Of a stretch of DNA of 64,000 nucleotides, positions 23,610 to 44,904 are shown one piece after another (position 1 is the stretch's first letter; the number at the start of each line of letters is the position of its first letter). A program made the position numbers and the translations under genes. The notes under the pieces are model-generated. The model did no database searches. It had not been told where the DNA came from and saw only the letters and a program-made list of their open reading frames with translations. Source of the stretch: an archaeon (GTDB lineage: Archaea; Iainarchaeota; Iainarchaeia; Iainarchaeales; JAAZKV01); NCBI GenBank assembly GCA_041659525.1, contig JBAZYC010000001.1, positions 205,731-269,730 of the forward strand. Direction: 5' to 3'.

Positions 23610-23671
23610 AAGTTCACTTCAACAATAAGTAATTCTCTAAAGAATATAAAACTTTCTTAGTAATCAAAAAT

Positions 23672-24193
23672 CTATTTAAACTTTTTTTTCATTACTTTTC
23701 TAATTTCAAACAACGTGGCGTGCACCCCAAGTTCTCCGTTTTCTGCTAGTCTTCTTGTTTCTCTGGCCATTGCTCTACTTGCACGATTGTTTTCTGCTAC
23801 TGTTGCTGTTCCATTGAATTGCTTCTTAAGACAATCTCGTTCTGTTTCATTTAAATTTGCTTTTGCAATCATGAAAAGAAAAAAACTTGCGTTTTTATTT
23901 TTTACTTTCTTACTCAAAGTTAAACAAAGTTTTCTGCTTCCAAGAAGTCTTGCCGCAAGTTCATTTTCAGACTTAATACTTTTCTTTAATAATTTTAACC
24001 CAGCAAATTGTGAAACTAATATTGATATTGTAGCAGCAACCGCTTTTGGTGAACTAAAAGTATTCATCACCCAAAAACCTATAGGTATGGTTCCAAAAAC
24101 TGTCCCTGTCCCTACTTTCTTTGAAGACTCAAGTCGGTCTAAATAAGAAGCGGTCTTATTAATGGTTTTCTGTCTATTAAACGCTTTACGCAT
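23672..24193 (-). CDS. Hypothetical protein (~173 aa)
   Basis: Track ORF starts at TTG 24202; ATG at 24193 (MRKAFNRQKT..). I prefer it over the antisense ORF 23715..24146 because its composition resembles neighbouring genes and the strand matches. No family recognised. Confidence 0.45.
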   Translation of the reverse strand: MRKAFNRQKTINKTASYLDRLESSKKVGTGTVFGTIPIGFWVMNTFSSPKAVAATISILVSQFAGLKLLKKSIKSENELAARLLGSRKLCLTLSKKVKNKNASFFLFMIAKANLNETERDCLKKQFNGTATVAENNRASRAMARETRRLAENGELGVHATLFEIRKVMKKKFK

Positions 24194-24319
24194 TAAATAC
24201 AAACGTATTTAGAATATAAAAAACGTAATCCTCCCTTTTAAAATTTGAAACCATCGCAATTCCAAAGTTAACCTATTTGTGCACGCATTTTCCCTAAACT
24301 CGCCATTGCAGATTAAACA

Positions 24320-28963: not shown

Positions 28964-28984
28964 ACTTTAACATTCACACACAGC

Positions 28985-29021
28985 TATTTAAATATCCTAC
29001 CGTTATACTACTTTATACTAC
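28985..29021. promoter_or_regulatory. Divergent promoter region: palindromic TATA-like box plus tandem 9-nt operator-like repeat upstream of the RHH gene
   Basis: TATTTAAATA (28985-28994) is its own reverse complement and lies 22 nt from the adhesin ATG (28963) and 41 nt from the RHH-gene ATG (29035). TTATACTAC occurs at 29003-29011 and again at 29013-29021 (10-nt period). Confidence 0.5.
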
Positions 29022-29034
29022 CAAGGAATTTTGT

Positions 29035-29904: not shown

Positions 29905-30716
29905 AAACAAAAATTTCTATTACCCTTGATGAAAACGTTATTGAAGAAATAAAAACAATGGTAGATGGAGTGCACATTAGAAATACTTCCCAAGCAGTAG
30001 AATACATGCTAAAAAAAACTCTTTCAGGAAACAACAAAGCAATTTTCCTCTGCGGAGGAAACATGAAGAAAACTGAGAGTGGTTATTTTAGACCATGCAC
30101 CCCTTTTTTGGGAGTCCCTGTAATAGTTCACAATATTAGATTTTTGAGGGATAATGGTTTTAGAGAAATAATTATACTTGCACAAAAACCAGCACTTATT
30201 GAAATAGAAAAAACAATTAATAGTGCAAAAATTAGTGGGGTAGAAATAAAATATTTAGAAGATCCTTTGAATTCTCAAGGAACAATGGACACTTTAAGAG
30301 AAGTAATTAAACTTGAAGGGACCACCCTCATTGCTTTTGGAGATGTAATCTTTTTTAATAATGATATTCAAAACTTTTGGAAAACCCATTTATTATACAA
30401 AGCAACTGCCACTCTTTATGCCCAAGCATTCATTGAAAAAATTCAGTGGGCAGGAGTAATAAGTATGGAAGGCAATCAAATAAATAGTTTTGTCCAAAAA
30501 CCTGGGAAAGTATTTTCCCTAATTCATTTTGGAGGAGCATTTATAGTTGAACCAAACATTATGGAGTATAAAGGAAACAGTCTTGAGTATGATATTTTTC
30601 CAGTACTTGCAGCAAAAAATCAATTAATTGGTTATATGAGTGAAAAACCAATTCACCACTTTCACACAGAAAAAGAAATAAAAGAACTAGAAACAAAACT
30701 AAAAAAGCCTTCCTGA
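29901..30716 (+). CDS. RHH + nucleotidyltransferase-like fusion, paralog 2 (271 aa)
   Basis: An ATGA start/stop overlap joins it to paralog 1 (29901-29904). It has the same architecture (MKTKISITLDENVIEEIKTMVDGVHIRNTSQAVEYMLKKTL; CGGNMKKTESGYFRPCTPF). Perfect nucleotide identity tracts with paralog 1: 48 nt (29146-29193 = 30012-30059) and 35 nt (29782-29816 = 30645-30679). Confidence 0.65.
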   Translation: MKTKISITLDENVIEEIKTMVDGVHIRNTSQAVEYMLKKTLSGNNKAIFLCGGNMKKTESGYFRPCTPFLGVPVIVHNIRFLRDNGFREIIILAQKPALIEIEKTINSAKISGVEIKYLEDPLNSQGTMDTLREVIKLEGTTLIAFGDVIFFNNDIQNFWKTHLLYKATATLYAQAFIEKIQWAGVISMEGNQINSFVQKPGKVFSLIHFGGAFIVEPNIMEYKGNSLEYDIFPVLAAKNQLIGYMSEKPIHHFHTEKEIKELETKLKKPS

Positions 30717-30830
30717 GAAATATTTAATTCAAAATAACTAAAAAAATTTAAACTAAAGTCTAATTTAATTTACCTAAAAAGATTTTTAGTTTTGAATGTT
30801 TTTTGGCGAGGATTTTAGAAAAAAACATTT

Positions 30831-32039
30831 TTAGACTTCATTTACTATACAGCGAACCCCTCCCCCATACTCCAAATTTGACTTTAATGGAACAATAGTG
30901 GAATGAACTTTGATTCCCGCTTGTTCTAAAGCTCTCCTAGTTTTAATTGCTCTTTTTTCAAGAAGTACTTCGTTTTCACCAAGCACTAAGAAATTAGCGG
31001 GGTGAAAAATTATTTCTGAAGAAGGAATTTGGACTATTCTTAATTGCTGTTCACGCACAGCTTGTTGCACTACGCCTTGGTTTTCTTTTAAGAAAAAAGG
31101 ATCAATTAACAAAGTCTTTCCAACTACCCCTAAGAAAAGATCCACATGAGTAGATTTTAAAAATACTTTTGTTTTAAATGCACGACTCAACCCTGGAGAA
31201 TACCGATTTCCTTTTTCTTCTAAGAAATATACTTTATTCCCTTTCCCAATTAATTTTTGGACAGCATAATCCTCTTTTAAGCGAGGATATGCAAAAAATG
31301 CAGTTGAATTAATATCAACTGAGAGTCCCCCCTCCCCAAGAGCGCTAGTAGAATTTGCAACAAATTTTAGTCTTTCTTTTCCAACTTTTTTGTAAATATC
31401 TCTCGCCCAATAATTATTTGCGGGGACAACATCTTTTTGCAAGGGAAATTTCCCGGGATATAGGTCATCAACATAAGGCATCCCAAATCTTAGCATTCTT
31501 TTTACAGGAAATGTCTTTGCATCTTTTCGCAACTTTGGATAAATACTTGTGGGTTCTTCTTTTCCCATTTCAATATATCTTGGTACCACTACTTTAAATC
31601 CAAGTTCGGCTAATTGATGAATTACTCTTACTCTTTCAAGATTTGTCTGAATAGAACTTCTTCGACCATGCACAAGTTCTAATTTAGAATCAAGATAACC
31701 CTTTAATGATTTAGGCAAATGTTCTTTGTCAATAACAAATCCTTGTTGAACGCGAACAATTAATTCACGGGTGTATTTGTTGGCTTGGCAGTGTTTCATT
31801 AGTTGAACAATCGAAGGGGTTCTGGCAGTCGGTGCTCTTCTTCGAGAAAAAAAACTTTCATCAGGAGCAAAATGAGGCATTAAGGCAACAAATTTTATTC
31901 TCCGATCTTTTTTTTCTCTTACCGAACTAGATATTTTTATTAAAGAAGTTTGGGTTTGCGACTTTTTAAAAGAACTAAATATTTTTTTTAACCCCCTTCG
32001 GGTTTTTGCGAAAGAAGGCTTAAACATATAATAATTCAT
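30831..32039 (-). CDS. Guanidino-group-modifying-enzyme superfamily protein (amidinotransferase / arginine deiminase / DDAH fold), 402 aa
   Basis: The C-terminal ..LEYGGGVRCIVNEV matches the catalytic GGG-x-x-C end of this superfamily. Upstream motifs STHVDLF (H-x-D) and FHPANFLVLGENEVLL are consistent with it. The basic N-terminal ~90 aa have no recognisable match. Substrate unknown. Confidence 0.5.
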   Translation of the reverse strand: MNYYMFKPSFAKTRRGLKKIFSSFKKSQTQTSLIKISSSVREKKDRRIKFVALMPHFAPDESFFSRRRAPTARTPSIVQLMKHCQANKYTRELIVRVQQGFVIDKEHLPKSLKGYLDSKLELVHGRRSSIQTNLERVRVIHQLAELGFKVVVPRYIEMGKEEPTSIYPKLRKDAKTFPVKRMLRFGMPYVDDLYPGKFPLQKDVVPANNYWARDIYKKVGKERLKFVANSTSALGEGGLSVDINSTAFFAYPRLKEDYAVQKLIGKGNKVYFLEEKGNRYSPGLSRAFKTKVFLKSTHVDLFLGVVGKTLLIDPFFLKENQGVVQQAVREQQLRIVQIPSSEIIFHPANFLVLGENEVLLEKRAIKTRRALEQAGIKVHSTIVPLKSNLEYGGGVRCIVNEV

Positions 32040-32155
32040 GCACTAAAGTATATTAGACTATTTGTTTCAAAAACAATTTGTTTGAAAAAAAGCATAATTT
32101 CTTTTTTTATTAAAAATAGTAACTTATCCCAATCGCTTAAAAATCAGATTTATTC

Positions 32156-32356
32156 TCATGCTTCTTTCTTTTTCTTCTTTTTTAATAGTAAGAACAATAA
32201 TAAAAACGCAATTATTAACAAAGGAATTCCTACAACAAATATATAATTAATTTCGTTTTTTTCGTTTTGTGAAGAAGTATTCACATCTATTTGTATTGCC
32301 TTGTGTAATTCAAACAGTGGAATACAAAAAGTAAATCCCCTTTCCAAAACTTGCAC
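32156..32356 (-). CDS. Small ORF ending in a TM helix plus poly-Lys tail (possible remnant of a surface-protein C-terminus)
   Basis: GTG-initiated 66-codon ORF. The C-terminus ..YIFVVGIPLLIIAFLLLFLLLKKKKKKEA resembles the anchors of the 1547-aa and 590-aa proteins. The coding status is weakly supported. Confidence 0.25.
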   Translation of the reverse strand: MQVLERGFTFCIPLFELHKAIQIDVNTSSQNEKNEINYIFVVGIPLLIIAFLLLFLLLKKKKKKEA

Positions 32357-32391
32357 AAAGGGCCAAGCAACAAATACTAATTTTCACAAAA

Positions 32392-32922
32392 CTAGGCTAT
32401 CTGTTCAGCAAGTTTCCTTGCAGTATTAACATTTCTCACTGTCATAAACTTATATTCATCACAACTAATAATTTTATTTAATTTACTTTTATTATAATTC
32501 TCTCTTTTAACATTCCAAAAAAGTGCTCCTTTTATGTATTGAATTTGAACATATTCTTTATTTATTGGCAAAACATCCAATATTTTTTTAGAATCAATTT
32601 CACTAAAAAGATAAGCTACATCAGTTTTTTGGGCATCATCATTAACCCAAGTCAAAGGTATTTTATGGGCAATGTTTTGTAATTCTTTTCTTGTTTTTAT
32701 TAAAGTAGGAACATCAAAACCCAAATTCTTTTTTAGTTCTGCTTCAACTTCTTTCTTAATCTCACTGCTATTTTTATTAGATTCAAAAAGTACATTTCCT
32801 GAATTAATGTACGTGAACACATTTGAACACCCAATCGACTCAAAAATAGTTTTGAGTTTTTTCATGTCAACTTTATGGTTTCCGCCAACATTAATTCCCC
32901 TAAGTAATGCAACATATTTCAT
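32392..32922 (-). CDS. DUF1697 family protein
   Basis: MKYVALLRGINVGGNHKVDMKKLKTIFESIGCSNVFTYINSGNVLFES.. is the characteristic DUF1697 N-terminus (ALLRGINVGG..K..M..L). The 176-aa length is typical. Confidence 0.85.
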   Translation of the reverse strand: MKYVALLRGINVGGNHKVDMKKLKTIFESIGCSNVFTYINSGNVLFESNKNSSEIKKEVEAELKKNLGFDVPTLIKTRKELQNIAHKIPLTWVNDDAQKTDVAYLFSEIDSKKILDVLPINKEYVQIQYIKGALFWNVKRENYNKSKLNKIISCDEYKFMTVRNVNTARKLAEQIA

Positions 32923-32998
32923 AATATCTAAAAAATAGTTTAACCTTTTAATTATTATTACTAACTAAAAACACTGGTTAGTAAAAAGTGTAATCCCC

Positions 32999-33030
32999 CC
33001 TCCCCGAGTGCCGCAGCCAGCACCGTTCCG
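32999..33030. repeat. 32-nt GC-rich direct repeat, copy 1
   Basis: CCTCCCCGAGTGCCGCAGCCAGCACCGTTCCG is identical to 34304-34335. It lies 13 nt downstream (minus sense) of the stop of 33044..34192. In minus sense it can form a 7-bp stem with a GCUG loop (GGUGCUG/CGGCACU). It overlaps the att-like 14-mer by 6 nt. Confidence 0.9.
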
Positions 33031-33043
33031 CCAAACATGCCAA

Positions 33044-34192
33044 TTAGGAATTAAGTAACTCAATACATTTACTTCTTAAGTTTTCAGACAATTTCGGAAA
33101 ATTTACCGATACAAAATTGTTAGCCTCAATTCTTGCATAATGCCCTGTATCTCCTCGCACATATCGTATATATTCAAAACACTTTTCAAGCAACACGGGA
33201 GATTCTAATATATCTTTGGAATAATAATTTGCTAAAACCATTACTTGCGTTTGAGTATTCCAACTTGCTGATTTATCTTTAAAACTTTTTATCAATATAT
33301 CATTAAACTGAGATTTAACGAATGTGTTTTTTATTTTGTTTTCATAATCAACATCACAAAGCAATTCCACTCCGGTAGCACCAAATAACATTACTTTTTG
33401 GTAAATTGCAGTAGCAATATGCTCAATTTCCTGTTGACTTAACAAAGCAACAAAATGCTTCAGATTGTATCTGAAATAACTTGTTTCCATAAAAAACAGG
33501 GCAAATAACTTTTCATTAAATCCATTACGTTGTAAAGAAGTCATTTTTGAAAATAGATATTCAAAGTCTTCAAAAGAAAACACATCCTCTTGTAAACAGT
33601 TCAAGTCCATATCAACAAGTAACTTGTCCATAATCTCCTTTTTTTCTGAGGAATATTCCTTTAGATTAACAGGCTTATTAATCTCAGCAGCTTTCTTAAT
33701 CAATTCTTTTTCATCCTTAGTCACCATACTATTCTTCAATTCATCCAAATTTTTGTTTGCGCTTAACAGTATTCTTTCTTGCATCTTAATCCAATCTTCA
33801 TCCCCAGGAAATTTTCTCCCAGAAAGTTCTTCAAAATACCCCAATACTGTTGTAACTTTTTTTTCATAATTCTGGTCTTGAGTTTCCAAGTTATGTTTAA
33901 AATAGGCTCTGAAAGCAGGTAACTTTTTTAAATCACCAGTATATATCTCAGAACTTTGTACACACTCAAAAAAATAAGAATAGGCATTTTCTATAAAATA
34001 CCCAAAAGTTTTGTCATCAGAAACTGGCTGGCTAAGTCTTAAAGGGATTGTTTCATAATTTGTTGAGGCTTTAAAAATAGTGATGCCCCCCCCTGTTAAT
34101 GAAAGTTCATTTATTATTTTCCTACTTTCGGTGATTTTTGCTACCACCTGTTTAAACCCCGCCTCCTTTCTTTCTATTAATCCAAAATCCAT
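33044..34192 (-). CDS. Hypothetical protein, 382 aa (bracketed by the 32-nt repeats)
   Basis: ATG at 34192 is preceded by GAGGGTGATTAA, a strong SD. The protein looks helical and soluble; no family recognised. Confidence 0.6.
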   Translation of the reverse strand: MDFGLIERKEAGFKQVVAKITESRKIINELSLTGGGITIFKASTNYETIPLRLSQPVSDDKTFGYFIENAYSYFFECVQSSEIYTGDLKKLPAFRAYFKHNLETQDQNYEKKVTTVLGYFEELSGRKFPGDEDWIKMQERILLSANKNLDELKNSMVTKDEKELIKKAAEINKPVNLKEYSSEKKEIMDKLLVDMDLNCLQEDVFSFEDFEYLFSKMTSLQRNGFNEKLFALFFMETSYFRYNLKHFVALLSQQEIEHIATAIYQKVMLFGATGVELLCDVDYENKIKNTFVKSQFNDILIKSFKDKSASWNTQTQVMVLANYYSKDILESPVLLEKCFEYIRYVRGDTGHYARIEANNFVSVNFPKLSENLRSKCIELLNS

Positions 34193-34303
34193 TTAATCAC
34201 CCTCAGCAGGACTAAAAGAATTCATAACATTAAATTTAAAGATTCATCTAGGCCAGCAAAATTAAAAAAAATACCCAAAATAAATCTTTTAAGTGTCTAC
34301 TCT

Positions 34304-34335
34304 CCTCCCCGAGTGCCGCAGCCAGCACCGTTCCG
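34304..34335. repeat. 32-nt GC-rich direct repeat, copy 2
   Basis: Identical to 32999-33030. It lies 9 nt downstream (minus sense) of the stop of 34345..35232 and ~110 nt upstream of the 34192 ATG. Confidence 0.9.
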
Positions 34336-34344
34336 TTTAATTTG

Positions 34345-35232
34345 TTATTCTACAAGTTGCATCTTTGATGTACCGATTTTAATAATTTTTTTAATTGGCT
34401 CAGAATTATCAGAATAAACAATAATCTCAAAGTCATAGTTTTCATTAATTGGCAAAGAAACCAAATTTCCATCTTTATTATCTTTTACTTTTAAATGCCA
34501 ACAGTCCAAACTTGCAAACTCCCCAACTAATTCCTCTTTTAATTTTTCTAAAGACAAAACAATTTCTGACCCCTCCGAAGTACGAATTACAGCACTTGGA
34601 GAATCCTTAGTTTTAAGTACTTCATATGCAATATCCAAAACGGCTTCATCATTTTTTGCAAGTTGAATAGAATCATAATTTTCAGGACCTGACCAAGACA
34701 ATCTTGTACCTTCATAAGAAAAATTGGCTGGAAGAGGCTTAATTTTTGACAATTTAGCATACACATTCTTTGCTGTGGCTGGCCCGACATTAACCACTTT
34801 TAACTTGTAATAATTTGCAAGATAATCAATAACTGCAGATTGTCTATCTTGTAATTCAACAATAACATGCGACCCAACATTCTCTCTTAGTATTATTTCA
34901 TGATCAAACTCGAGTTTTGCTTTTTGATTCCAATCTTGGAAAAGAGCCAAAATAACTACACTAACAGTCCCTATTGCAATAAATATATTCAATATTATAT
35001 TATAAATTGGCTCATGCTCTGCATGTACTCCAAACATACCCAAACTTGTGGAAATATAATTTATGTTTAATGTAACTGCCCCCAATAAAACAATTAAAAG
35101 AACTGGAACTAACAGCATTCTTCCTTGAAGAGAATTAAAAATACTAGCAGACGAAGTTCTTATCCACTTACAAATCCCATCTAAAGTAACACCCATAGTT
35201 ATCAAACCCATAAAAGAATTTAAAAATCTCAT
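34345..35232 (-). CDS. Membrane-anchored hypothetical protein, 295 aa
   Basis: ATG at 35232 is 5 nt after the stop of the upstream gene (operon-like). It has three N-terminal hydrophobic segments, then a ~190-aa beta-rich-looking domain. No family recognised. Confidence 0.55.
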   Translation of the reverse strand: MRFLNSFMGLITMGVTLDGICKWIRTSSASIFNSLQGRMLLVPVLLIVLLGAVTLNINYISTSLGMFGVHAEHEPIYNIILNIFIAIGTVSVVILALFQDWNQKAKLEFDHEIILRENVGSHVIVELQDRQSAVIDYLANYYKLKVVNVGPATAKNVYAKLSKIKPLPANFSYEGTRLSWSGPENYDSIQLAKNDEAVLDIAYEVLKTKDSPSAVIRTSEGSEIVLSLEKLKEELVGEFASLDCWHLKVKDNKDGNLVSLPINENYDFEIIVYSDNSEPIKKIIKIGTSKMQLVE

Positions 35233-35237
35233 TATAC

Positions 35238-36101
35238 CTATTGGTCAGCATTACCCCGCCACATAAATCGTTTATTTTTTTTGGTTACATTTACGTCTTT
35301 TAAGAAAGAAACCTTTGGTTTTTCTTTAAGCGGAAAAAGGTCAACCACAAAATAAATACCAGTCATTATTTTCATTATTGGATTAGTAATAGTATAATAA
35401 AAAGACCAAGTTGGAGAAAGTTCCCCCCAAAATCTATTACTTAATAATTTGAGATATCCTGTGTGCTGAGTCATCATAAAACCCCCTATAGAAAAAGGAA
35501 TAATAATGATCCCCAAAGCATAGCTACTGACTAATAATAAAGTTGAAAGACTTACAATGGATACACCTTGAACGAGCAAAGTTTGACTAATGACTACAAT
35601 CAATGCAAGTAAAGCCATTAATGAAAAATTAACAAGCCCAAAGCCAATGCTCACAAGCAAAGTTTTCAAAGATGCCTTTAATATTTCACCATCTTTAATT
35701 GTCTTTAAAAAAATATAACGAAATACTTGTAAGTAACAAATTAGAAACAAAATAATTCCAACTAGCGCAAGGCCTGTGGCAAATGGTTCAACAAGAGTAA
35801 CTTGTAATTGAAACACCACTTGCACAATCACAATTAATGCAGAAACAATAGTCAAGATTGGAGAAAATGCAAATATTACCGAAGCAAGAAGGATAAAAAG
35901 GCTAATAACTATTGCTGCCAGAATTGTCAAACTAAACTCTTCAGCTTGAAAGTCTAGTTCTGCATTTTTACCATATGTGGTGTTTCTAAAATAAAATATT
36001 AACCCCAACCCCGGTAGCAAAAAAAACAAAAAAAGAAAATTATAAGGATTGCCAGCAAGCAACTGAATCAATTGAAACAATTGAGCGATATATTCTAACA
36101 T
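35238..36101 (-). CDS. Polytopic membrane protein (~287 aa)
   Basis: Track start is TTG 36119; first ATG at 36101 (MLEYIAQLFQ..). It is hydrophobic throughout, with an estimated 7-8 TM helices. No family recognised. Confidence 0.55.
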   Translation of the reverse strand: MLEYIAQLFQLIQLLAGNPYNFLFLFFLLPGLGLIFYFRNTTYGKNAELDFQAEEFSLTILAAIVISLFILLASVIFAFSPILTIVSALIVIVQVVFQLQVTLVEPFATGLALVGIILFLICYLQVFRYIFLKTIKDGEILKASLKTLLVSIGFGLVNFSLMALLALIVVISQTLLVQGVSIVSLSTLLLVSSYALGIIIIPFSIGGFMMTQHTGYLKLLSNRFWGELSPTWSFYYTITNPIMKIMTGIYFVVDLFPLKEKPKVSFLKDVNVTKKNKRFMWRGNADQ

Positions 36102-36270
36102 AACACCACAACTTAACAATATAGCGATTGTTTTTTAACTACTTATTTCAAGACTCACTAACAACAAGTCAACGATAAGTATAACTGAATGCTGCAGACA
36201 GAGCCATTCAGTTTAGCATATAGACATTTCATTTACTGCCAAAGTGATAATACAAACTACTGGAGGTACC

Positions 36271-37806
36271 TTAGCAATTAAAGTCTAATAAAAATGATCC
36301 CGCTTGAAAAGGAAATCCAGGTACATTCAGGTTAACTAACGTGTTATCTATGTCTTTTTGTTGTTTCACATCACAACTACTACCTTGTTGGGAAGAAACA
36401 CAACCAACGAAGTTTGCATCCTTCGCTCCCGAAATATTAAACCTGAGAAATGTTTCTTTATCTGATCTCGGCACATAAGAAATATTTATGTCACACGACT
36501 TTGGAATGTAAGCATAGTTAATAATTGGGAGCAACTTATTTGGAGGATTATCTGAATGGAATATAGGATTAACACTCTGTTCAACATAAAATTCATTTAC
36601 AAAATTTAAATCCCTAAAAAACAAGCTATCTAATCCCCAAAATAATTTATTAAAATTTAAATCAATATTTATTGGAGCATGAATAAAACAACTATCCTTA
36701 GTATTTTCCAAACTATATGAAGTCGCTGCTACTTTGACCATATTAATATTTGGGAGAGTACTTGTAGCTTTTGCATAAGACAAATGAGACACGTTTTGCG
36801 CTGATTCCAAGATATTCTTTTTGTCAATCTCAAACTTACTGCAAGTTAATGGGCCGTTAGAACCTTCATTTGATTGATAATAAGTAGTTAACTCAGGATA
36901 TTTCTGGTTCGCATCAAAATAGAAAAATTTTTGTCGAACAAGTGAAAAGCGAATCATAACATTATCAGAATGACGTTCTTTGATGGTGTATATCAACAAG
37001 CTATTACTACTGGAAAAATCCGCATTACCATTTAGTTCAAATAAATATACTTGCGGGGATACTATTACTTGGGGCGTTGAAAAAAGAATTAATAAAAAGA
37101 ACAAAAAGGCCCCAACCAGAGGCAACAAAATAAAAAGAATAAAAGCTTTTTTTGTATCCAAAAACTTTAATGTTGCAGCCAAATTATCACGGATTGCCAT
37201 ATTTCCAAAAATTAGTTCATAAAAAAATTCTGTTATAAATATACAAAAAGTGAATGCCGCCACCCCCGTAAGAAATTTTATGCTAAGTAAAATATAATAA
37301 TTAGAATCAATAGGCCTAAACAAAAACGAAAATAGAAAAAATCCGAATAAGAACATTGCTAAAATAAACCCAAATTTTTGAATAGAATCTACTACTTTTC
37401 TCCAAATTAATTTTTTAGTTGTCCTTGGCGGAAATTTTACAAACTCTGCATAAAACTTGAACCAAAAGAAGAAAATCACGATAATTGTGACAAAGGTTAT
37501 TGTCAAAATCAAGCTAGTATCTTTAGAAATAAACCCCTGCGGGCTATTTGCAAACAAAAAATCAAATGTTGACAAGCCAGTCGAAAATGTGCTTATTGAA
37601 AGTAAAGATAAAACTCCAAGCGCCAATGCAAAAAGACTTGAAGAAAAAAAGTTTTTTAAAAAATTCCCTTTTTTATAAACTAACACTGAATAACATATAA
37701 ATGCAAGTAGAATAGACAATAAAGCTGTGCTTTCTAATGATAACCCTGTAAGCGAAAAAAGATAACTTGACACAAAGGTCAAAACCATTTCAACAAAATC
37801 TACCAT
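36271..37806 (-). CDS. Membrane protein with multi-TM N-terminal half and ~260-aa C-terminal soluble domain, 511 aa
   Basis: ATG start (MVDFVEMVLTF..). There are at least 6 hydrophobic helices in residues 1-245, then a polar Cys-containing domain. No family recognised. Confidence 0.6.
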   Translation of the reverse strand: MVDFVEMVLTFVSSYLFSLTGLSLESTALLSILLAFICYSVLVYKKGNFLKNFFSSSLFALALGVLSLLSISTFSTGLSTFDFLFANSPQGFISKDTSLILTITFVTIIVIFFFWFKFYAEFVKFPPRTTKKLIWRKVVDSIQKFGFILAMFLFGFFLFSFLFRPIDSNYYILLSIKFLTGVAAFTFCIFITEFFYELIFGNMAIRDNLAATLKFLDTKKAFILFILLPLVGAFLFFLLILFSTPQVIVSPQVYLFELNGNADFSSSNSLLIYTIKERHSDNVMIRFSLVRQKFFYFDANQKYPELTTYYQSNEGSNGPLTCSKFEIDKKNILESAQNVSHLSYAKATSTLPNINMVKVAATSYSLENTKDSCFIHAPINIDLNFNKLFWGLDSLFFRDLNFVNEFYVEQSVNPIFHSDNPPNKLLPIINYAYIPKSCDINISYVPRSDKETFLRFNISGAKDANFVGCVSSQQGSSCDVKQQKDIDNTLVNLNVPGFPFQAGSFLLDFNC

Positions 37807-37926
37807 AGTAATATTCTAGTTAGGACTTATTAAAAGCCTTTTTGATTACTTTCCAGCTTTGCTGCGCCAGTACTGAACCAAGCGTCATTCCATTAATTTT
37901 TATTCTTTTTAGAGACTCATATTTGT

Positions 37927-38502
37927 ATGCTTGAGATAAGTGATAAAGAACGTTACGCAATGAATATGTTTCTAAGATCCCAAAAAACTGCTTTTTTGAA
38001 TAGCAAATCACCAACTGAATTCCCTGAATTTTCTGCACGCACAGACATTGCAATTGTTTATCCAATTCGTGAAATCAAAGGAAAAATCAAGAGTTTATTT
38101 TACCAGCCATTATTGTTGAAAACTGGAGAAATAGAGTTCATAAAAGTAAAAAGGCCCAGAGGGCTTCCTTACGTTGACAAAAGTAAAGGTACAATTAAAC
38201 TAAAAGGAAAAGTTGTTGGATTACAAGCCTTGACTTACACTTTTACCGACAAAGAAAATAATGAACGAGGAATCTTTTTTGACAAACAACTTTTGTATAA
38301 AGACAAATACTATTTGCTGAAACTCTTTGCAAAAGAAATTTATCCACACTTAAATAAATTATCCTACAATGATTGGGAACTCGGAGCTTTTATTGAAATG
38401 TATAAAGATATTAAACCAAACGAAGATCTCCCAAGATATGCAAACAGAACTTCATTTACTCGTCTTTTAAGAAGATATATCAAAACAGATAAAATCCTAT
38501 AA
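37927..38502 (+). CDS. Hypothetical basic protein, 191 aa (start may be at an internal Met)
   Basis: ATG ORF divergent from the 36271..37806 operon. K/R-rich; no family recognised. Confidence 0.5.
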   Translation: MLEISDKERYAMNMFLRSQKTAFLNSKSPTEFPEFSARTDIAIVYPIREIKGKIKSLFYQPLLLKTGEIEFIKVKRPRGLPYVDKSKGTIKLKGKVVGLQALTYTFTDKENNERGIFFDKQLLYKDKYYLLKLFAKEIYPHLNKLSYNDWELGAFIEMYKDIKPNEDLPRYANRTSFTRLLRRYIKTDKIL

Positions 38503-38547
38503 TAATACTCCCCCCGGGTCAAATAGCAGTATAATGTTATAATTTAT

Positions 38548-38724
38548 ATGGATCAAACTGAAACCAAAATTTGTTCTTGCTGCGGGCAACCAATCTACAC
38601 CAGCAAAGAGCTCGAAAAAAAGCTTGGCTTACCAATTGTGTACTTGCTTGAACAATATGACTTGTGGAAAAAGCTTAATGATGAAAACCCCACACACACC
38701 CATAAACAGGAGGAATTAGTATGA
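38548..38724 (+). CDS. Small Cys-motif protein, 58 aa (below the ORF-track length cut-off)
   Basis: Hand translation: MDQTETKICSCCGQPIYTSKELEKKLGLPIVYLLEQYDLWKKLNDENPTHTHKQEELV*. Its TGA overlaps the next gene's ATG (ATGA at 38721-38724). The AGGAGG for the next gene lies within its 3' end. Confidence 0.45.
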   Translation: MDQTETKICSCCGQPIYTSKELEKKLGLPIVYLLEQYDLWKKLNDENPTHTHKQEELV

Positions 38725-38972
38725 AAGAAGATTTTCATAAACAGATTTTAGATTTTATGGATATTTTAACGAGAAAAGGACTTAATCAAGTTCCAGTGGA
38801 AAAACTGAAGCATGGTATTGCTGAGGTGTTTGGAGATGATAGGCACAGAGTTTCATTTATACTTAAACATCTAATAGAAATTGGTTTTGTTAAAGTGGAT
38901 AGAAACAATATAGCTAGGATAGATAGTTCTGTTGAAGAAAAGTATAGATTAGATAGATTATTTTTCATGTAG
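38721..38972 (+). CDS. Small winged-helix-like protein, 83 aa
   Basis: AGGAGG lies 8 nt upstream of the ATG. ..ILTRKGLNQVPVEKLKHGIAEVFGDDRHRVSFILKHLIEIGFVKVDRNN.. has an HTH plus wing-like pattern. The family assignment is tentative. Confidence 0.5.
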   Translation: MKEDFHKQILDFMDILTRKGLNQVPVEKLKHGIAEVFGDDRHRVSFILKHLIEIGFVKVDRNNIARIDSSVEEKYRLDRLFFM

Positions 38973-38990
38973 GTGTGGGTGGGTGGTAAA

Positions 38991-39476
38991 ATGACTTCAG
39001 AAATACAAGCAAACTCAAATAAAGAAAATGCTCAGAAAAGTACTGGACCAAACGACACAAGTGTTACTCGCTTTAATGCTGTAAAGTATGGTTTGACTGG
39101 AAAGTGCTTTATGACACCTGAAGAGGTACAAGTTACGGAAGAAATTTATGAAGATTTGGTACAAACATTCAATCCCAAAGATTCTATTGAAAGATTTCTT
39201 GTTTATCGTATGGCTCAAATAATAATCCGGCTTCAAAAGATTAATCAAATAGAATCAGCAACTCTTCAAAATTCTCTAACTTCTAAAGAAAATTGGGAAA
39301 GTAATCCCGTGTGCCAAGCATTAGAAGAACCTTTGAAAAACCCTGACGAAAAACCTTTGCTTAAATATGAAGATTTAACAAAAATTGAACTCTTAGCCAG
39401 ATATGAGACTAACCTAGAGAACCGATTGACCAAGATACTCAAGGTTTACTATGAAAAACAAGAACAACGCAATTAA
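38991..39476 (+). CDS. Hypothetical protein, 161 aa
   Basis: Track start is GTG 38973. ATG 38991 is preceded by GGTGGGTGG-TAAA (SD). The N-terminus MTSEIQANSNKENAQKSTGPNDTSVTRFNAVKYGL.. resembles a motif (N..NA.KSTGP....N..KHGL) that I recall from uncharacterised mobile-element proteins. This is unverified. Confidence 0.5.
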   Translation: MTSEIQANSNKENAQKSTGPNDTSVTRFNAVKYGLTGKCFMTPEEVQVTEEIYEDLVQTFNPKDSIERFLVYRMAQIIIRLQKINQIESATLQNSLTSKENWESNPVCQALEEPLKNPDEKPLLKYEDLTKIELLARYETNLENRLTKILKVYYEKQEQRN

Positions 39477-39644
39477 CTGGGTTCGTTTCGCAATAATATT
39501 GAGCAAACCAATAGAAAAAGAGTATTGAAATAGTATTACAAATTGCGTTAAAATGCAATTCAAATACTGCAATTTTGCTTCACAAAATTCCCTAAATGCG
39601 AGTCCTTTCCAATTAATCATTGGGTTAAAACTTATACTAATTTG

Positions 39645-39980
39645 TCATACTTTAATAAAATGAGACTTGCAAATAGGACAAGAAGGATCAACTTTATCCC
39701 TAATATAGATTCCAACTAAACCGCCCCAAAAAAATATCCAAAGCAACCCCTGAATTGAAGGATAAGGCACTAAAAACCAAAACAAAGCCACGTAAATCAA
39801 ATAAGCCATAACAATCTGTTTGGCCCACTGCATAAGAGTCATGCGTTGAGGCTGAACATTTTGTTTACAATTAACACAATATCTGGGTCCATTTTTCCCA
39901 TTAACAAAATTAGTTAAAGGGGCCGATTTTACCCAATCAGTAAAAGAAAATTTAGAGTCACCCTTCAATTTATCACTCAT
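39645..39980 (-). CDS. Small membrane protein with split zinc-ribbon-like CxxC pairs, 111 aa
   Basis: ATG at 39980 (MSDKLKGDSKF..) avoids overlap with the divergent 40032 gene. It has CVNC .. two TM helices .. CPIC. The 36 upstream codons in the track are probably not coding. Confidence 0.5.
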   Translation of the reverse strand: MSDKLKGDSKFSFTDWVKSAPLTNFVNGKNGPRYCVNCKQNVQPQRMTLMQWAKQIVMAYLIYVALFWFLVPYPSIQGLLWIFFWGGLVGIYIRDKVDPSCPICKSHFIKV

Positions 39981-40031
39981 GGTAAGTAAATGGTAACTAA
40001 ACATATTTAAAAGGTAATATGTCTTATTCTC

Positions 40032-40253
40032 ATGAAGACTAACTGGGAAGAAATAGCATTCATAAAAGCAAGCAAATACAGAAAACAAATACTAGACTCT
40101 TTATCCGAACCAAAAACCCCAACAGAATTAGCCAAAATAACTGGCCAAAACATAAGCCACATAAGCAGAACACTTAAAGAATTACAAGAACGAGAACTAA
40201 TCAAATGCTTAACTCCAAATCTACGAAAAGGACGACTTTATAAAAAGTTATAA
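40032..40253 (+). CDS. ArsR/MarR-like winged-helix transcription regulator, 73 aa
   Basis: ..ASKYRKQILDSLSEPKTPTELAKITGQNISHISRTLKELQERELIKCL.. shows a typical wHTH (recognition helix ISHISRTLKEL). Confidence 0.7.
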   Translation: MKTNWEEIAFIKASKYRKQILDSLSEPKTPTELAKITGQNISHISRTLKELQERELIKCLTPNLRKGRLYKKL

Positions 40254-40275
40254 TCAAATTAAATTAGTTGAAAAT

Positions 40276-40869
40276 ATGACTACAAATAAACAATCATTAG
40301 CTTCCCTAGCTAAAGCAGCATTTAATCCAGTAGCTAAGTTATGCAATAGTGAAAAAGATGATGAACGATTAGTTGGTATTAATATTATTCTTTTTATTTT
40401 TTGTTTAGCTCTTGTAGGAACAACACAACAATTAACCGATTTAAACAGTATTGGACTAGTTGCATACTTAGTTGTATTTGGTTTATTTGCATCAATAATC
40501 TCATTAGCATATAGACCTGCCCTTTTAGCAATTGCAGGATTTGTAAATAGAGATATTTTCGCACTAAAATTTTCTGTAGGAGTAATGTTTATCCTTAGCG
40601 GCCTAAGCTTTTATGCCGCATATTACCTTCGTAAAGATTTACTACCCCTACTAATTTTTGGAATTATTGCCCAACTTATGTCAATAGTAATTATTGGATT
40701 CGCAAAAATTCCAATAAAAACTTTCCAAACTCAATCAAAGGAGACAAACAAATTAACATTTTGGGAAATACTAGAAAAAATAGATACAATAGGAGGAGTC
40801 ATTGGTTTAATAATATTTTTGATTCCTTTCATTAGCGGAATTATAACTTATTTATTCTCTCTTTTGTAA
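40276..40869 (+). CDS. Polytopic membrane protein, 197 aa
   Basis: ATG start, 22 nt after the regulator gene. Five or six hydrophobic helices. No family recognised. Confidence 0.55.
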   Translation: MTTNKQSLASLAKAAFNPVAKLCNSEKDDERLVGINIILFIFCLALVGTTQQLTDLNSIGLVAYLVVFGLFASIISLAYRPALLAIAGFVNRDIFALKFSVGVMFILSGLSFYAAYYLRKDLLPLLIFGIIAQLMSIVIIGFAKIPIKTFQTQSKETNKLTFWEILEKIDTIGGVIGLIIFLIPFISGIITYLFSLL

Positions 40870-40937
40870 TTGTCTCTTCAACAACTACTTAAAACCAATG
40901 AAACTAAACAGAATTAAGACAATAAAAAAAGCAACGT

Positions 40938-41282
40938 TTATCTTCGTTTTATCTTTTTTGGCGCAGGAAGTAATAATTGCTTATCCATTTTATTGAGTTC
41001 AGCAAATAAATTTTTAAAAACCAATGTAGCTTGTGCAAGATTCTTTTTTTGAGCCACTGAATCTAATACTGCAAAGTTAATCCTATGGACTTGCTGAGTT
41101 GATCCAGACAAATTCGCCCCCGCTAAACTAATATCTATTTTTCCAGAGCTTTCTTTAGTAGTTGTTACAGAAATGTCAAAATTTAAACGCCCTTCTAAAT
41201 CAAATCCCTCTGGCAAAGCATCCTTAATTTGATTCAAAGTTTTTGCAACAAAATCTTTAATTTCATTTTCTGACATTATCAT
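40938..41282 (-). CDS. Small protein with Trypco2-like (effector-associated) sequence pattern, ~114 aa
   Basis: ..GFDLEGRLNFDISVTTTKESSGKIDISLAGANLSGSTQQVHRINFAVLD.. has alternating beta-strand segments ending in H-R-I-x-F. It resembles the trypsin-co-occurring domain 2 family from memory; not verified. Confidence 0.35.
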   Translation of the reverse strand: MIMSENEIKDFVAKTLNQIKDALPEGFDLEGRLNFDISVTTTKESSGKIDISLAGANLSGSTQQVHRINFAVLDSVAQKKNLAQATLVFKNLFAELNKMDKQLLLPAPKKIKRR

Positions 41283-41300
41283 CACCCTTAAAACTATAAA

Positions 41301-41771
41301 CTAAGCCTCTTTAACTTTTGAAATGCAAAAAACCTCATATTTATTAGTGTATTCTTGATTAATTTTTTCAGATACAATCTCGTAAATTTCAGTTACCCCA
41401 TTTTGTTCAATTTTAGCTATTTGAGACTCATTTAAATTAATTCTATGTCCAAGGATTTTTTCAGCAATGATTGAATCCTCTCTTACTACTTTTATGGCAT
41501 TGTTATTCTCCCCCTTATAAGTAGTAATATTAAGATGAGGGCCGCTAGAATCATGCTCATGCTCTCGGTCCACACGTATCTCTTCAATCAGCACAATCGG
41601 ATCCTTTGACCAAGGTTTTTCCACAATAGTAAGTTCAATACGATTGTCTTGAATCTCCCTAAATATCAATATAGCATTTCCTGCCTGCGCTTTACTTCCG
41701 CCAACACTATTATAAGTAAACCCCATTTGAGTTGCTGTTGAATTAGCAGTCGTATTATAAGCCCTTTCCAT
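41301..41771 (-). CDS. Hypothetical protein, 156 aa
   Basis: ATG ORF 15 nt upstream of the previous gene on the same strand (operon-like). No family recognised. Confidence 0.5.
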   Translation of the reverse strand: MERAYNTTANSTATQMGFTYNSVGGSKAQAGNAILIFREIQDNRIELTIVEKPWSKDPIVLIEEIRVDREHEHDSSGPHLNITTYKGENNNAIKVVREDSIIAEKILGHRINLNESQIAKIEQNGVTEIYEIVSEKINQEYTNKYEVFCISKVKEA

Positions 41772-41835
41772 TAAAGACTAGCCCAATAATAGTTTTTTAA
41801 ATTAATTTATAGTCGTTTCAATTCCCCAGTAACAA

Positions 41836-43080
41836 TTACTTTTTAACATTTTTTTGCAAAATATTGATTTGTTTTTCCATTTGCCGCATTTTATTAAAGA
41901 ATTCTTCGGGCGATTTCATATATTCAAGCAAAGCATTTTCCTTAACCTTATTTTCAAGCGCTTCTTTTTGTACCGTTTCAACATTTAGAGGCATTGCGCA
42001 TCTAAAACAGTAAGATGCGTTTGGAGGATTCTTTTCATTGCAACGTGAGCAAACTTTGGGTTTGAGTTTGCTTTCTTTTATATCTTCTTTTGGTTTTAAC
42101 CCGTTAACAGCTAGAATTGCATCATCAACATTTCGTCCAGACATGTGAACGTATCTTGCAGCCATGTCTGAGCTTTGAGTCCACCCGAAGTATTCTTTCA
42201 TTTGTGCTTCGGTTAGTTTGTTTGCTAAATCTGTTGCTCTTGCGTGTCTGAATTGGTGAGCATTATGTTTTTTCTTTACTCCTGCTCTTTCGAAGGCTGT
42301 TTCAAGTATTTTCTTTACTCCGCTATAACTTAGTGCTTGTACATTTCCAAGTTCAAGCGGTCTTCCTTTTCCTTTGCTTGGGCGATTCATTAATTTGATC
42401 CAAAGTGGTGCGTCAGGATTGTCTTTCAAAGGATGCATATTCAACCAAGTAGAAAGATAATTTGTTGAAGAGACTAACGGAATTCTTCTTTGGCCAGTTT
42501 TCCCATTTACTTGAATTGAAGTTATTTGTTCCCCAAAATGAATGTCCTTTATTCGAAGCGGCAGTATTTCTCCAATTCTTCCACCAGATTCAAACAACAT
42601 GAAAATTAAGCATTTGTCTCTTGGGCTTTGAGCATAACTAACAACTTTCAATAGTTCTTCTTCAGTGATTAAATCTTCAGGAAGTTGAGTATCATTTGGA
42701 CTTTTTATTTTCAGCCACTTAATACAGTCAGGATAATATTCATCATTTCCTAATAACCACTTGTAAAATCTTTTCAAGACAGTTTTGTAATCAGCTTTTG
42801 TCCATGCAGCGTAGTCTTTGTTATTTTCTATTTTCGCAATCATCTTTTCGCAATCATTTTTTGTTGCTTCTCTAAATGGTTTATTATTTCCTTGTGAAAT
42901 AAAACGAAGCACGATAACATTTTTTATTAATCTTATTTTTTTGATTCCTAAAGCTTGCATTGATGCAATGAAATTTTCAATGTCTTTCTTATCAGTAGAG
43001 GAAATTTTGCTTTCGTGTAGAGTTTTGAGTGCTGAATCAAGTCGTGCGTCACAGTAGTAAATGTCTTTGTGTTCAGCCAT
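41836..43080 (-). CDS. Tyrosine recombinase/integrase with C-terminal zinc ribbon, 414 aa
   Basis: N-terminal SAM-like core-binding region. Catalytic motifs: ..ESGGRIGEILPLRIKD.. (Arg I), ..HQFRHARATDL.. (H-x-x-R), ..GWTQSSDMAARYVHMS.. (catalytic Tyr). The C-terminal CSRCNEKNPPNASYCFRC is a Zn ribbon. The gene starts 58 nt from the tRNA-Tyr 3' end. Confidence 0.9.
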   Translation of the reverse strand: MAEHKDIYYCDARLDSALKTLHESKISSTDKKDIENFIASMQALGIKKIRLIKNVIVLRFISQGNNKPFREATKNDCEKMIAKIENNKDYAAWTKADYKTVLKRFYKWLLGNDEYYPDCIKWLKIKSPNDTQLPEDLITEEELLKVVSYAQSPRDKCLIFMLFESGGRIGEILPLRIKDIHFGEQITSIQVNGKTGQRRIPLVSSTNYLSTWLNMHPLKDNPDAPLWIKLMNRPSKGKGRPLELGNVQALSYSGVKKILETAFERAGVKKKHNAHQFRHARATDLANKLTEAQMKEYFGWTQSSDMAARYVHMSGRNVDDAILAVNGLKPKEDIKESKLKPKVCSRCNEKNPPNASYCFRCAMPLNVETVQKEALENKVKENALLEYMKSPEEFFNKMRQMEKQINILQKNVKK

Positions 43081-43137
43081 AATTACTGCATGCGCAATTC
43101 AATTTATAAATAAAACGGAACTGCACTCCAGTACTAA

Positions 43138-43252
43138 TCCCCCCTCCCAGAATTGCACCGGGGATATCTCGGTTACCGCACCAGAAAGATTATTTCTTTC
43201 ATGGGATTATAGATACTACAGCCGAGCGTTCTAGCTACTAAACTAAGGGGGG
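43138..43252 (-). tRNA. tRNA-Tyr (GUA) with a 42-nt intron at the canonical 37/38 position (intron ~43174..43215); no encoded CCA
   Basis: Hand fold of the minus strand: CCCCCCT-TA-GTTT-AGTAGCTA-GAAC-G-CTCGG-CTGTAG[42-nt intron]A-CCGAG-ATATC-CCCGG-TGCAATT-CTGGG-AGGGGGG-A. All stems pair (one G.U in each of the D and T stems). C1:G72 is the archaeal/eukaryal Tyr identity pair. The T-loop has G instead of U at position 55, and the D-loop lacks GG. Confidence 0.85.
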
Positions 43253-43386
43253 ATAAGGAGCTTTGCTTTCTTGTCCTTAATTGAAATAGTGGCAGAGGAG
43301 TTTTTTAAAGGTTTTGAGTGGGTTTTTGAAGTAAAGTTTTTGGTTTTAGTTAAGTTGTTTTTTAAAAAAAATAGAGTTTAAGAGAG

Positions 43387-44295: not shown

Positions 44296-44373
44296 TATTT
44301 CTTCGAAAACCAAAATCTTCACCAACCATTTTCAAAATATGTCCATGAATTTGAGTTTTTTATTTTCTCAAAT

Positions 44374-44467
44374 TCTTTAGACTCTTTAGAGTCTTTAGAC
44401 TCCTTAGAGTCTTTAGACTTTTATTTATAAAAAAATTTATTCTTTAGACTCTTTAGAGTCCTTAGCA
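44374..44467. repeat. 9-nt tandem repeat TC(T/C)TTAGA(C/G): 5 intergenic copies plus 3 copies forming the gene's 3' end
   Basis: Copies at 44374-44418 (tctttagac tctttagag tctttagac tccttagag tctttagac) and 44441-44467, inside the CDS. In the CDS they encode ..KDAKDSKESKE*. The two blocks are separated by a stop codon and an A7 run, and the distal block is out of frame by 1. Confidence 0.85.
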
Positions 44468-44904
44468 TCTTTTGGAACTTTTTTCTTTAGTCTTCCCATA
44501 CCAGGTATTTCTATTTGAGAATAATCAACCATGAGTCCGCATGCTTTGAGACATTTTCTTGTAGCGTATGTTCTCAAAAAGTCAGCTACTTCTTTTTGCT
44601 GATTTTTTTGCAAGGTAGGTATTTGAGAAATTTCATTTATCACTTTTGAAATAGTTCTTGAATTAATTTCTTCTAAAGCTTTTACTGCATCCCCTTTAGC
44701 AAGTCCAAGTGTTTGGATTGCTGCGTCAAGTTTTGGTAAATCAACTTTTTTGCTTAAGTTAGATTCAACTTTAGCATCAACACTATTAGTAAGGCTTGCA
44801 AGAAATTCCATTACAGTTAATGGATCAGTTTTTTCTGTTACTGTTTGTTTCTTTACTGCTTTCCAACCATCATAATTAGCTACAAATTGAATACTTCCTT
44901 CCAT
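44437..44904 (-). CDS. Hypothetical protein with Lys/Ser/Glu-repeat tail, 155 aa
   Basis: ATG ORF (MEGSIQFVANYDGWKAV..). No family recognised. Confidence 0.55.
   Translation of the reverse strand: MEGSIQFVANYDGWKAVKKQTVTEKTDPLTVMEFLASLTNSVDAKVESNLSKKVDLPKLDAAIQTLGLAKGDAVKALEEINSRTISKVINEISQIPTLQKNQQKEVADFLRTYATRKCLKACGLMVDYSQIEIPGMGRLKKKVPKDAKDSKESKE

Follow-up and report, generated by a model that had tools for sequence, protein, structure and literature searches.

The subject of this analysis is a 10-kb island in the chromosome of an archaeon of the Iainarchaeia (DPANN), lying within the 64,000-nt stretch of contig JBAZYC010000001.1 part of which stands above and which, at its full length, is referred to as the window. 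Positions 33005-43134 of the window are very probably an integrated mobile genetic element that occupies the 3' end of a tRNA-Tyr gene and carries its own tyrosine integrase. The original prediction had proposed an integrase-bearing element at tRNA-Tyr with a repeat resembling an attachment (att) site, and the repeat, the tRNA, an intact integrase that is not a XerA, and the point at which homology to relatives breaks off all agree with it. The island is an ordinary kind of tRNA-integrating tyrosine-recombinase element in a little-studied host. The features that define it are:

43252-43138, minus strand: tRNA-Tyr(GTA), the integration target, identified from exon conservation in 17 loci, the intron-less locus L026 and ARAGORN on the spliced sequence
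43252-43216, 43215-43174 and 43173-43138, minus strand: 5' exon, 42-nt intron (at the canonical position 37/38) and 3' exon of this tRNA
43135-43148, minus strand: attL core, GGGAGGGGGGATTA on the minus strand, an exact repeat; homology to relatives L032 and L034 ends at 43136
43103-43134, minus strand: integrase-proximal (P') arm, GTACTG-GAGTGC-A-GTTCCG, with its motif at 43128-43116, kept in five elements and an inverted repeat of the distal arm
43110-43103, minus strand: TATA-like TTTATAAA, which follows the AGTGC-N-GTTCCG motif in five elements
41836-43080, minus strand: tyrosine integrase (int), 414 amino acids (aa), intact (Pfam Phage_integrase PF00589, 1.7e-18)
34291-34335, minus strand: copy B of a 45-nt arm repeat, an internal att-like site with the degenerate core GGGGAGGAGAGTAGAC; its arm equals that of copy A at 32/32 nt
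32986-33030, minus strand: copy A of this GC-rich 45-nt repeat, comprising the element (P) arm CGGAAC...GCACTC and the attR core
32991-33004, minus strand: attR core, an exact repeat, inside copy A
32978-32990, minus strand: displaced native tRNA trailer, which with the core TTA reads TTACACTTTTTAC, oligo-T terminator included, as compared with integrase-free trailers

The tRNA-Tyr target, the core repeat and the integrase

An exact match to the 14-mer TAATCCCCCCTCCC (plus strand) is found at just two places in the window, 32991-33004 and 43135-43148, which are separated by 10,130 bp holding some 14-15 open reading frames (ORFs). The earlier claims that the sequence at the tRNA end recurs once, at 32991-33004, and is unlikely to do so by chance both stand, the chance expectation being 0.09 per window even when up to two mismatches are allowed, and frequent occurrence of the 14-mer, which had been named as a ground for doubt, was not found within the window. 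A third copy, matching at 12/14 positions (31323-31336), lies inside an ADI-like ORF, where it encodes ALGEGGL, and is rejected as an att site, being a coding coincidence. The 14-mer is made up of the final 11 nt of tRNA-Tyr, which run from the closing 3 nt of the T-stem through the acceptor 3' strand to A73, and of 3 nt of trailer. It is short for a tRNA att site, as had been cautioned, but within the documented archaeal range, for which the 14-bp core of SNJ2 and the 11-bp core of Msmi-Pro1 are precedents (PMC8371274, PMC5861418). The direct orientation of the repeat is borne out, but its description as a bare 14-mer has to be given up, since the distal copy sits in a conserved 45-nt arm.

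No tRNA was called at 43.2 kb by default ARAGORN or Rfam, because the gene carries an intron. Intron-aware ARAGORN reports a tRNA at 43137-43253 (minus strand), labelled Asn with an intron at 36/37; this label is rejected in favor of Tyr(GTA) on the evidence of the 17 orthologous loci, the intron-less ortholog in L026 and the spliced window sequence, which ARAGORN itself identifies as tRNA-Tyr(GTA). Across the 17 orthologous loci in Iainarchaeia the 37/38 intron ranges from 0 to 116 nt and is poorly conserved in sequence, with the exons nearly invariant. There is a lesson for annotation here, in that default tRNA finders miss intron-bearing archaeal tRNAs and thereby conceal att sites. A second intron-bearing tRNA is present in the window at 61340-61426 (minus strand); default ARAGORN labels it tRNA-Asp(atc), a call that changes to tRNA-Thr(TGT), with an intron of 15 nt, once introns are allowed, the syntenic place in relatives being taken by a tRNA-Thr(TGT) that has none.

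The integrase ORF starts 57 nt past A73 of tRNA-Tyr and on the same strand, confirming the predicted arrangement. Its catalytic residues R168, H275, R278, W300 and Y310 align with those of Pyrococcus abyssi XerA (4A8E), the motif HQFRH providing the HxxR signature (H275-Q-F-R278), and a C-terminal Cys4 zinc ribbon is located at residues 344-361. Membership of the XerA clade, which had been named as a possible refutation, is rejected: a XerA is expected to score above the NCBIfam equivalog NF040815 cutoff of 220, to be about 280-330 aa long and to have no att/tRNA association, whereas this integrase scores 83.6 bits, has 414 aa and an extra zinc ribbon, and is tRNA-adjacent. Identity with IntI is rejected likewise, since the integron-integrase models give 55.7 and 23.2 bits where 265 and 435 are required. 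In a search of viral integrases (tblastn, E<=1e-5), which matched 25 phage records, the nearest were those of the archaeal pleomorphic proviruses ThalV2 (BK065158) and Geoglobus acetivorans pleomorphic virus 1 (GacPV1; BK065156), at 36-38% identity over 90-95% of the length; SNJ2 was not among the records matched.

When the ends of the island are joined they read CGGAAC-N13-GCACTC-G-GGGAGGGGGGATTA-GTACTG-GAGTGC-A-GTTCCG, in which the inverted repeats CGGAAC/GTTCCG and GCACTC/GAGTGC surround the core (7/2000 shuffles score as well), and the joined-end pattern in the related locus L002 matches it. As judged by sequence, the joined ends look like an attP site, and the arm motifs and core fit predicted core-type binding sites of the integrase, with a predicted int promoter in the P' arm, where the TATA-like TTTATAAA probably drives int. 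On the integrase side, AGTGC-N-(G/A)(T/C)TCCG is located exactly 10 nt past A73 and is followed by TTTATAAA in the window, L002, L006, L009 and L047; the arm in L047 keeps this fixed distance although the tRNA acceptor, and hence the core, differs. On the distal side, the left 32 nt of copies A and B are identical (CGGAACGGTGCTGGCTGCGGCACTCGGGGAGG), and outside the 45-nt unit the sequences to the left and right of the two copies are unrelated. Copy A consists of arm, core and then a native-type trailer, and so has the structure expected of attR; the tRNA-Tyr trailers of integrase-free species are TTTACTTTTT (L011, L012, L020, L032) and TTACACTT (L029).

It is hardly credible that the 45-nt repeat is a chance match, a terminator or an RNA structure, with the integrase an unrelated resident recombinase. 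Both copies do come just after the stop codon of a minus-strand ORF, and a T5 run follows copy A, but RNA folding of the copies is not significant (z = -0.6 and -1.2), and there is no site resembling a terminator. Moreover, in L002 the arm is again found together with an integrase of this family, the motifs of the copies are the inverted complement of the integrase-proximal arm, and the boundary of the island coincides with the end of homology to relatives. The idea that the 45-mer is a tRNA fragment was rejected by inspection, there being no T-arm pairing.

Under the preferred reading, that of an integrated element, a circular form carrying attP would have entered attB, at the tRNA-Tyr 3' end, by recombination. 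The tyrosine integrase that it encodes presumably catalyzed exchange within the 14-nt core GGGAGGGGGGATTA and would bind the inverted arms (distal side, CGGAAC...GCACTC; int side, GAGTGC.GTTCCG). Integration would have rebuilt an intact tRNA at attL, set int and its promoter immediately downstream, and moved the original tRNA trailer to attR (32991-33004); tandem accretion or cassette capture would then have produced the composite island described below. From the sequence we infer that the island may be competent for excision at present, which would restore an attB made up of the tRNA end and CACTTTTTAC (43165..43135 joined to 32990..32960, minus strand).

Conserved frame, island boundaries and mobility

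The window, from a contig of about 985 kb, is placed in Iainarchaeia (Diapherotrites, DPANN) by the relatives of its integrase and by Taw1-anchored loci. Throughout this class the gene order giant protein-Taw1-DUF2666-PAP2-tRNA-Tyr is maintained, and the window is collinear with L032 and L012 over the wider frame aCPSF1-PsmB ... tRNA-Tyr-PAP2. The distance from PsmB to the 3' side of tRNA-Tyr is, however, 19.8 kb in the window, 2.6 kb in L032 and 5.5 kb in L012, with no shared genes. The nearest hosts, L032 and L034 (Taw1 83%), are integrase-free; in L032, PsmB-lipoprotein-Maf-125aa stands next to tRNA-Tyr. The blastn homology of the window with these two loci covers PAP2 and the tRNA and ends at 43136, so the proximal boundary of the island is fixed to within 1-2 nt of the repeat edge. 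Presence of the same gene block in all relatives would have told against a mobile element; as it is, L032 and L034 lack the integrase, and the cargo beyond int differs in L002, L006 and L009. These three loci compare with the window as follows:

L002: integrase 90% aa identity and int region 84% nt; DUF2666 79% and PAP2 47% aa; flank 67% nt
L009: integrase 88% aa identity and int region 80% nt; Taw1 63%, DUF2666 65% and PAP2 41% aa; flank 64% nt
L006: integrase 83% aa identity and int region 78% nt; Taw1 70%, DUF2666 80% and PAP2 51% aa; flank 66-71% nt

Horizontal transfer is therefore indicated, the integrase being 83-90% identical against more diverged host flanks and the cargo being different; shared cargo is limited to o191/o58/o83 (L002) and a winged helix-turn-helix (wHTH) gene (L009). 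More distant integrases are found at the same tRNA-Tyr position in L047 (69% identical) and in L015, L016, L023 and L024 (approximately 50%), and for the latter four no distal att copies were detected in the 5.8-8 kb of sequence. Among 13 Taw1-anchored tRNA-Tyr loci, four have an adjacent integrase and four others have extra copies of the tRNA 3' end. Contig P0006 was considered as a possible circle and rejected, being an integrated copy.

The gene for a DUF1697 protein (32392-32922, minus strand), which had been proposed as the distal flank of an empty site, did not serve in this role. It is not a proven core gene; no ortholog exceeds 67% identity, and its best matches (65-67% identical) are scattered across CPR/Patescibacteria and several DPANN lineages, a distribution that suggests horizontal acquisition. 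Lacking a close ortholog, it cannot be used as an empty-site anchor. Besides DUF1697, the PsmB-tRNA interval of the window (23300-43138), which is hypervariable between species, includes genes for a surface protein of 1547 aa and two NTP-transferase paralogs, and the ADI-like gene; no relative of the ADI-like protein was found in JGI metagenomes.

Assemblies from other samples provide a further view of the boundaries. Two Logan contigs (SRR18595301) are 100% identical to the window, L001 to 43164-34306 and L042 to 34333-33001; they break at the copy A/B repeat, and their ends overlap by 30 nt, which implies assembly at k=31. The start of L001 lies exactly 30 nt (k-1) from 43134, as a branch at the core edge would give, i.e. 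a second sequence in the sample that shares the tRNA end and diverges at 43134; this is an indirect hint of an alternative junction at 43135|43134, and a single-nucleotide polymorphism at 43165 is a less likely cause. The integrase contigs of relatives L005 and L008 also have their start at the att copy/tRNA 3' end, 84-93 nt upstream of int. In SRR18595301 (L001, L042, L043, L046) the integrase module was recovered in one 8.9-kb contig and the Taw1 side in a 16-kb contig; the lower flank is fragmented, with a single contig of 1.8 kb, and the stretch from PAP2 to the tRNA is missing. This contrast may reflect a higher copy number or a lower strain heterogeneity of the element.

Several observations weigh against the island being an integrated element of the extent given, or against its mobility. 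The source assembly is the sole source for the order of sequence across the 31-32-nt repeats, and, with ends of L042 that overlap by 28-30 nt, the k=31 graph equally allows the block between copies B and A, which holds the single gene o382, as a 1.3-kb circle. No circular attP junction was found, a 23-nt arm pattern giving 0 matches in IMG/VR and only the known relative in JGI; nor was an exact empty site, exact-protein lookups of DUF1697, PAP2 (with two alternative starts) and DUF2666 having matched nothing. At 6+6 nt the inverted repeats of the arms are short, and of the five elements that support them four are related. No recognizable replication, conjugation or virion/capsid genes were found in the island with Pfam, PHROGs, NCBIfam and phmmer. 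The comparison of composition between 33-43 kb and its flanks that had been proposed went against the prediction, the GC and tetranucleotide profiles of the island being without shift and indistinguishable from those of the host. Finally, with DUF1697 not demonstrably core and the PsmB-tRNA interval variable, older accretions may extend beyond 32991; no att remnant was detected at 23-33 kb of the window.

Some of these observations would suit a fixed relic, i.e. a past integration that is now immobile, with int retained for another role or decaying and the locus varying by ordinary recombination. The composition is fully ameliorated, no circular form was found in viral contigs or JGI, and an integrase is present at the same locus in many species. 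A relic is nevertheless improbable, since the integrase ORF and its catalytic residues are intact and both cores are perfect. Further, the integrase is 83-90% identical across hosts whose flanks are much more diverged, which argues for recent transfer, and the core edge is where the assemblies of three independent samples (L001, L005, L008) are interrupted.

Composite structure and cargo

The sequence shows the island to be composite, with an 8.8-kb integrase module and a 1.3-kb single-gene block. The prediction of a single element of approximately 10 kb is thus upheld as regards the island itself, but not its unity, given the internal degenerate att copy at 34291-34335. L002 (GCA_037141515.1 JBAXCL010000009.1, 5486-14612) is a tandem array, divided into modules by six copies of the tRNA-Tyr 3' end, in the order tRNA, HicA block, Fic block, AAA_14/DUF4143 ATPase block, int module and ORF189 block. 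One such copy closes each module, the int module having there a homologous arm plus core (13794-13835), and two of the modules end in an identical left arm of approximately 50 nt (CCTTCTGACATCTGCAACACGAGAATAGACCTGC...). By analogy with L002, copy B would end the 8.8-kb int module, and copy A would be the outermost attR. The core of copy B has five mismatches clustered in 7 nt (AGAGTAGA where copy A has GGGGATTA), changes that may reflect recombination with a variant site, or inactivation.

Tandem blocks are also seen in L026 (JABIDZ010000078.1, Ca. Iainarchaeum SI048_bin86, 1-2700), where four of them, of 0.5-0.9 kb, lie downstream of tRNA-Tyr, each with one ORF on the tRNA strand (three with a lipobox, one a membrane protein) and with a 15-25-nt copy of the tRNA 3' end at its end. 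No integrase is present in this locus, and its architecture is like that of an integron cassette array. Across Iainarchaeia, mobile elements and small gene cassettes have come to rest at tRNA-Tyr again and again, in tandem arrays whose modules are bounded by att copies.

Directly after the att core in different species there is a motif, TTCCC-N4-GGGAAGAC(CAAC), which forms a small hairpin. It is present in L002 (at 13822), L012 (527 nt past the tRNA), L026 (two copies) and, approximately, L011, and has the look of a left end conserved within a family of small modules that lack an integrase.

It may be, with somewhat less than an even chance in our estimate, that the current mobile unit is only the 8.8-kb module (34304-43134), the o382 block being the remnant of a decayed sibling or a captured cassette; in the latter version an integrase-less o382 cassette would use the arm and core in trans, in the manner of cis-mobilizable elements (CIMEs) or integron cassettes. 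This is a refinement of the integrated-element reading, not a true rival to it. It is favored by the duplication of the arm at 32/32 nt with unrelated sequence to its left, by L002, where arm and core end the int module and a small block with a further tRNA 3'-end copy comes next, by the integrase-free single-ORF blocks of L026, and by the 1.3-kb circle that the overlapping ends of L042 permit. However, recombination between attL and copy B should be poor with so many core mismatches, a perfect core with a native trailer is present only at copy A, and no independent copy of o382 was found in another context.

The remaining genes of the island, from the integrase side to the distal end, are:

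40938-41771, minus strand: two small soluble ORFs, o156 and o115 (156 and 115 aa), directly downstream of int
40276-40869, plus strand: protein with six transmembrane (TM) segments
40032-40253, plus strand: wHTH regulator, by family match
39645-40088, minus strand: zinc-finger/TM protein
39414-39620, minus strand: 68-aa ORF with two TM segments
37927-39476, plus strand: backbone operon o191-o58-o83-o167, the first three genes common to L002 at 57-76% identity
34345-37806, minus strand: cargo genes o511 (six TM segments and a C-terminal domain), o293 (polytopic membrane protein) and o295 (two TM segments), all ORFans
33044-34192, minus strand: o382 (382 aa), an ORFan and the sole gene of the 1.3-kb block that separates copies B and A

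Searches of the cargo against Pfam, PHROGs and NCBIfam gave nothing beyond int and one wHTH, and no cargo match at all in PHROGs. The predicted cargo of wHTH regulators, membrane proteins and unknowns is therefore correct as to the membrane proteins and ORFans, with TM segments in 6 of the 14 cargo ORFs; as to the regulators, a single wHTH matches any family, and it has an 81% identical counterpart in L009. Neither o156 nor o115 matched a family; by analogy with Orf2/Orf3 of SNJ2, accessory proteins that are required for integration (PMC5861418), they are possible accessory or directionality factors. For backbone protein o191, 5.8 billion proteins yielded a single homolog and, in addition, one weak representative; with its AF2 model (pLDDT 67.6), Foldseek returned nothing at E<=0.001 with a TM-score above 0.3. 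Since membrane proteins predominate in the cargo, a role in modifying the cell surface is possible.

Given these membrane proteins and the integrase matches, it can be asked whether the island is a provirus, derived from a pleomorphic membrane-vesicle virus that infects DPANN archaea and is akin to pleolipoviruses; we regard this reading as very improbable. The best viral integrase matches, ThalV2 and GacPV1, belong to genomes of 13-16 kb that start with int, the island is of similar size, and its membrane proteins include one of 511 aa. Yet phmmer with the ThalV2/GacPV1 proteomes against the island and the cargo of its relatives matches integrases alone, with no similarity to VP3, VP4, the conserved proteins of approximately 470 and 340 aa or the rolling-circle replication (RCR) Rep, and there are no PHROG matches. 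The layout of o511, with six N-terminal TM segments, is also unlike that of VP4, which has a signal peptide plus a C-terminal anchor. Further, cargo is not conserved among elements with near-identical integrases.

Elsewhere in the window, a 9-nt tandem repeat (TCTTTAGAC/GTC) at 44336-44488, encoding KESKDSKE... on the minus strand, covers the 3' end of DUF2666 and the spacer before PAP2, and a Logan contig breaks inside it. Tandem paralogs of 289 and 271 aa (29035-30716, plus strand; 77-84% nt identity) combine an N terminus resembling ribbon-helix-helix proteins with a nucleotidyltransferase. Three giant predicted surface proteins are encoded on the minus strand, at 8017-16959 (2980 aa), 24320-28963 (1547 aa) and 46039-51291 (1750 aa), all in one 64-kb window of a genome of approximately 1 Mb; the last is syntenic in relatives, at 31-48% identity.

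Relation to known systems and biological meaning

The archaeal system that the island is most like is SNJ2, a temperate pleolipovirus of Natrinema that targets tRNA-Met (PMC5861418), without detectable sequence membership in the IntSNJ2 family. The two have in common a tRNA target, a 14-bp core direct repeat, an intact int, the bacterial-type R...HxxR...Y tetrad and small ORFs beside int. By contrast with SNJ2, the island targets tRNA-Tyr, not tRNA-Met, resides in a DPANN and not a haloarchaeal host, carries no pleolipovirus structural genes and has int first in its transcription unit, and no sequence similarity between the two integrases was detected (tblastn, E<=1e-5). ThalV2 and GacPV1 are similar in having int at the genome end next to att and small genomes (13-16 kb), but the integrase is the sole gene shared with them, VP3, VP4 and Rep not being matched in the island at the level of sequence (phmmer). 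As with pNOB8-type elements, att lies outside int, which thus stays intact when integrated, but the signature is HxxR, not YxxR, and the att identity is 14 nt, not 40-60 bp (PMC8371274). The island differs from the suicidal SSV type in having HxxR, not KxxR, and an unsplit int with att 57 nt upstream of the ORF (PMC8371274).

Beyond the archaea, there are similarities with the tycheposons of Prochlorococcus, which likewise combine a tyrosine recombinase, tRNA 3' ends, a streamlined genome and flanking partial tRNAs, and in which successive integrations push older ones deeper into a variable island, with cargo largely of unknown or niche genes (bioRxiv 10.1101/2020.12.28.424599). The tycheposons are, however, bacterial, have their own integrase clade and usually carry a primase/helicase replication module, a kind of module that is not recognizable in the island, so that the likeness is one of architecture. 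Accretion of integrative and conjugative elements (ICEs), integrative and mobilizable elements (IMEs) and CIMEs, and integron arrays, are comparable in that modules are bounded by one site, some with a single ORF and integrase-less (L026, L002, o382). Unlike in integrons, the sites are tRNA 3' ends and not attC hairpins or attI, and the integrase is not IntI; unlike in ICEs, conjugation genes are not recognizable in the island.

Mobile elements of DPANN archaea are poorly characterized, and the literature that could be searched contained no account of this family of elements. The island offers a clean and experimentally tractable recombination system, with a 414-aa integrase, a 14-nt core and short arms, in a lineage without genetic tools, and tRNA-Tyr is indicated as the main hotspot of gene flux in these genomes of roughly 1 Mb. 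A more far-reaching proposal, which we consider rather unlikely, is that tRNA-Tyr in Iainarchaeia is the docking site of a dedicated gene-capture platform, in which one integrase family would act on conserved arms and a core that stems from the tRNA 3' end, and would mobilize both complete elements and integrase-less cassettes of a single gene. The cassettes would then encode mostly lipoproteins and membrane proteins and pile up in tandem, as in L026 (four), L002 (five modules) and the o382 block of the window. If this proposal is true, the platform would be an archaeal counterpart of integrons or tycheposons, by which archaea that are ultra-small and probably dependent on a host diversify their cell surface, and mobilization of such arrays in trans would explain surface-protein variation in these streamlined, symbiont-like organisms.

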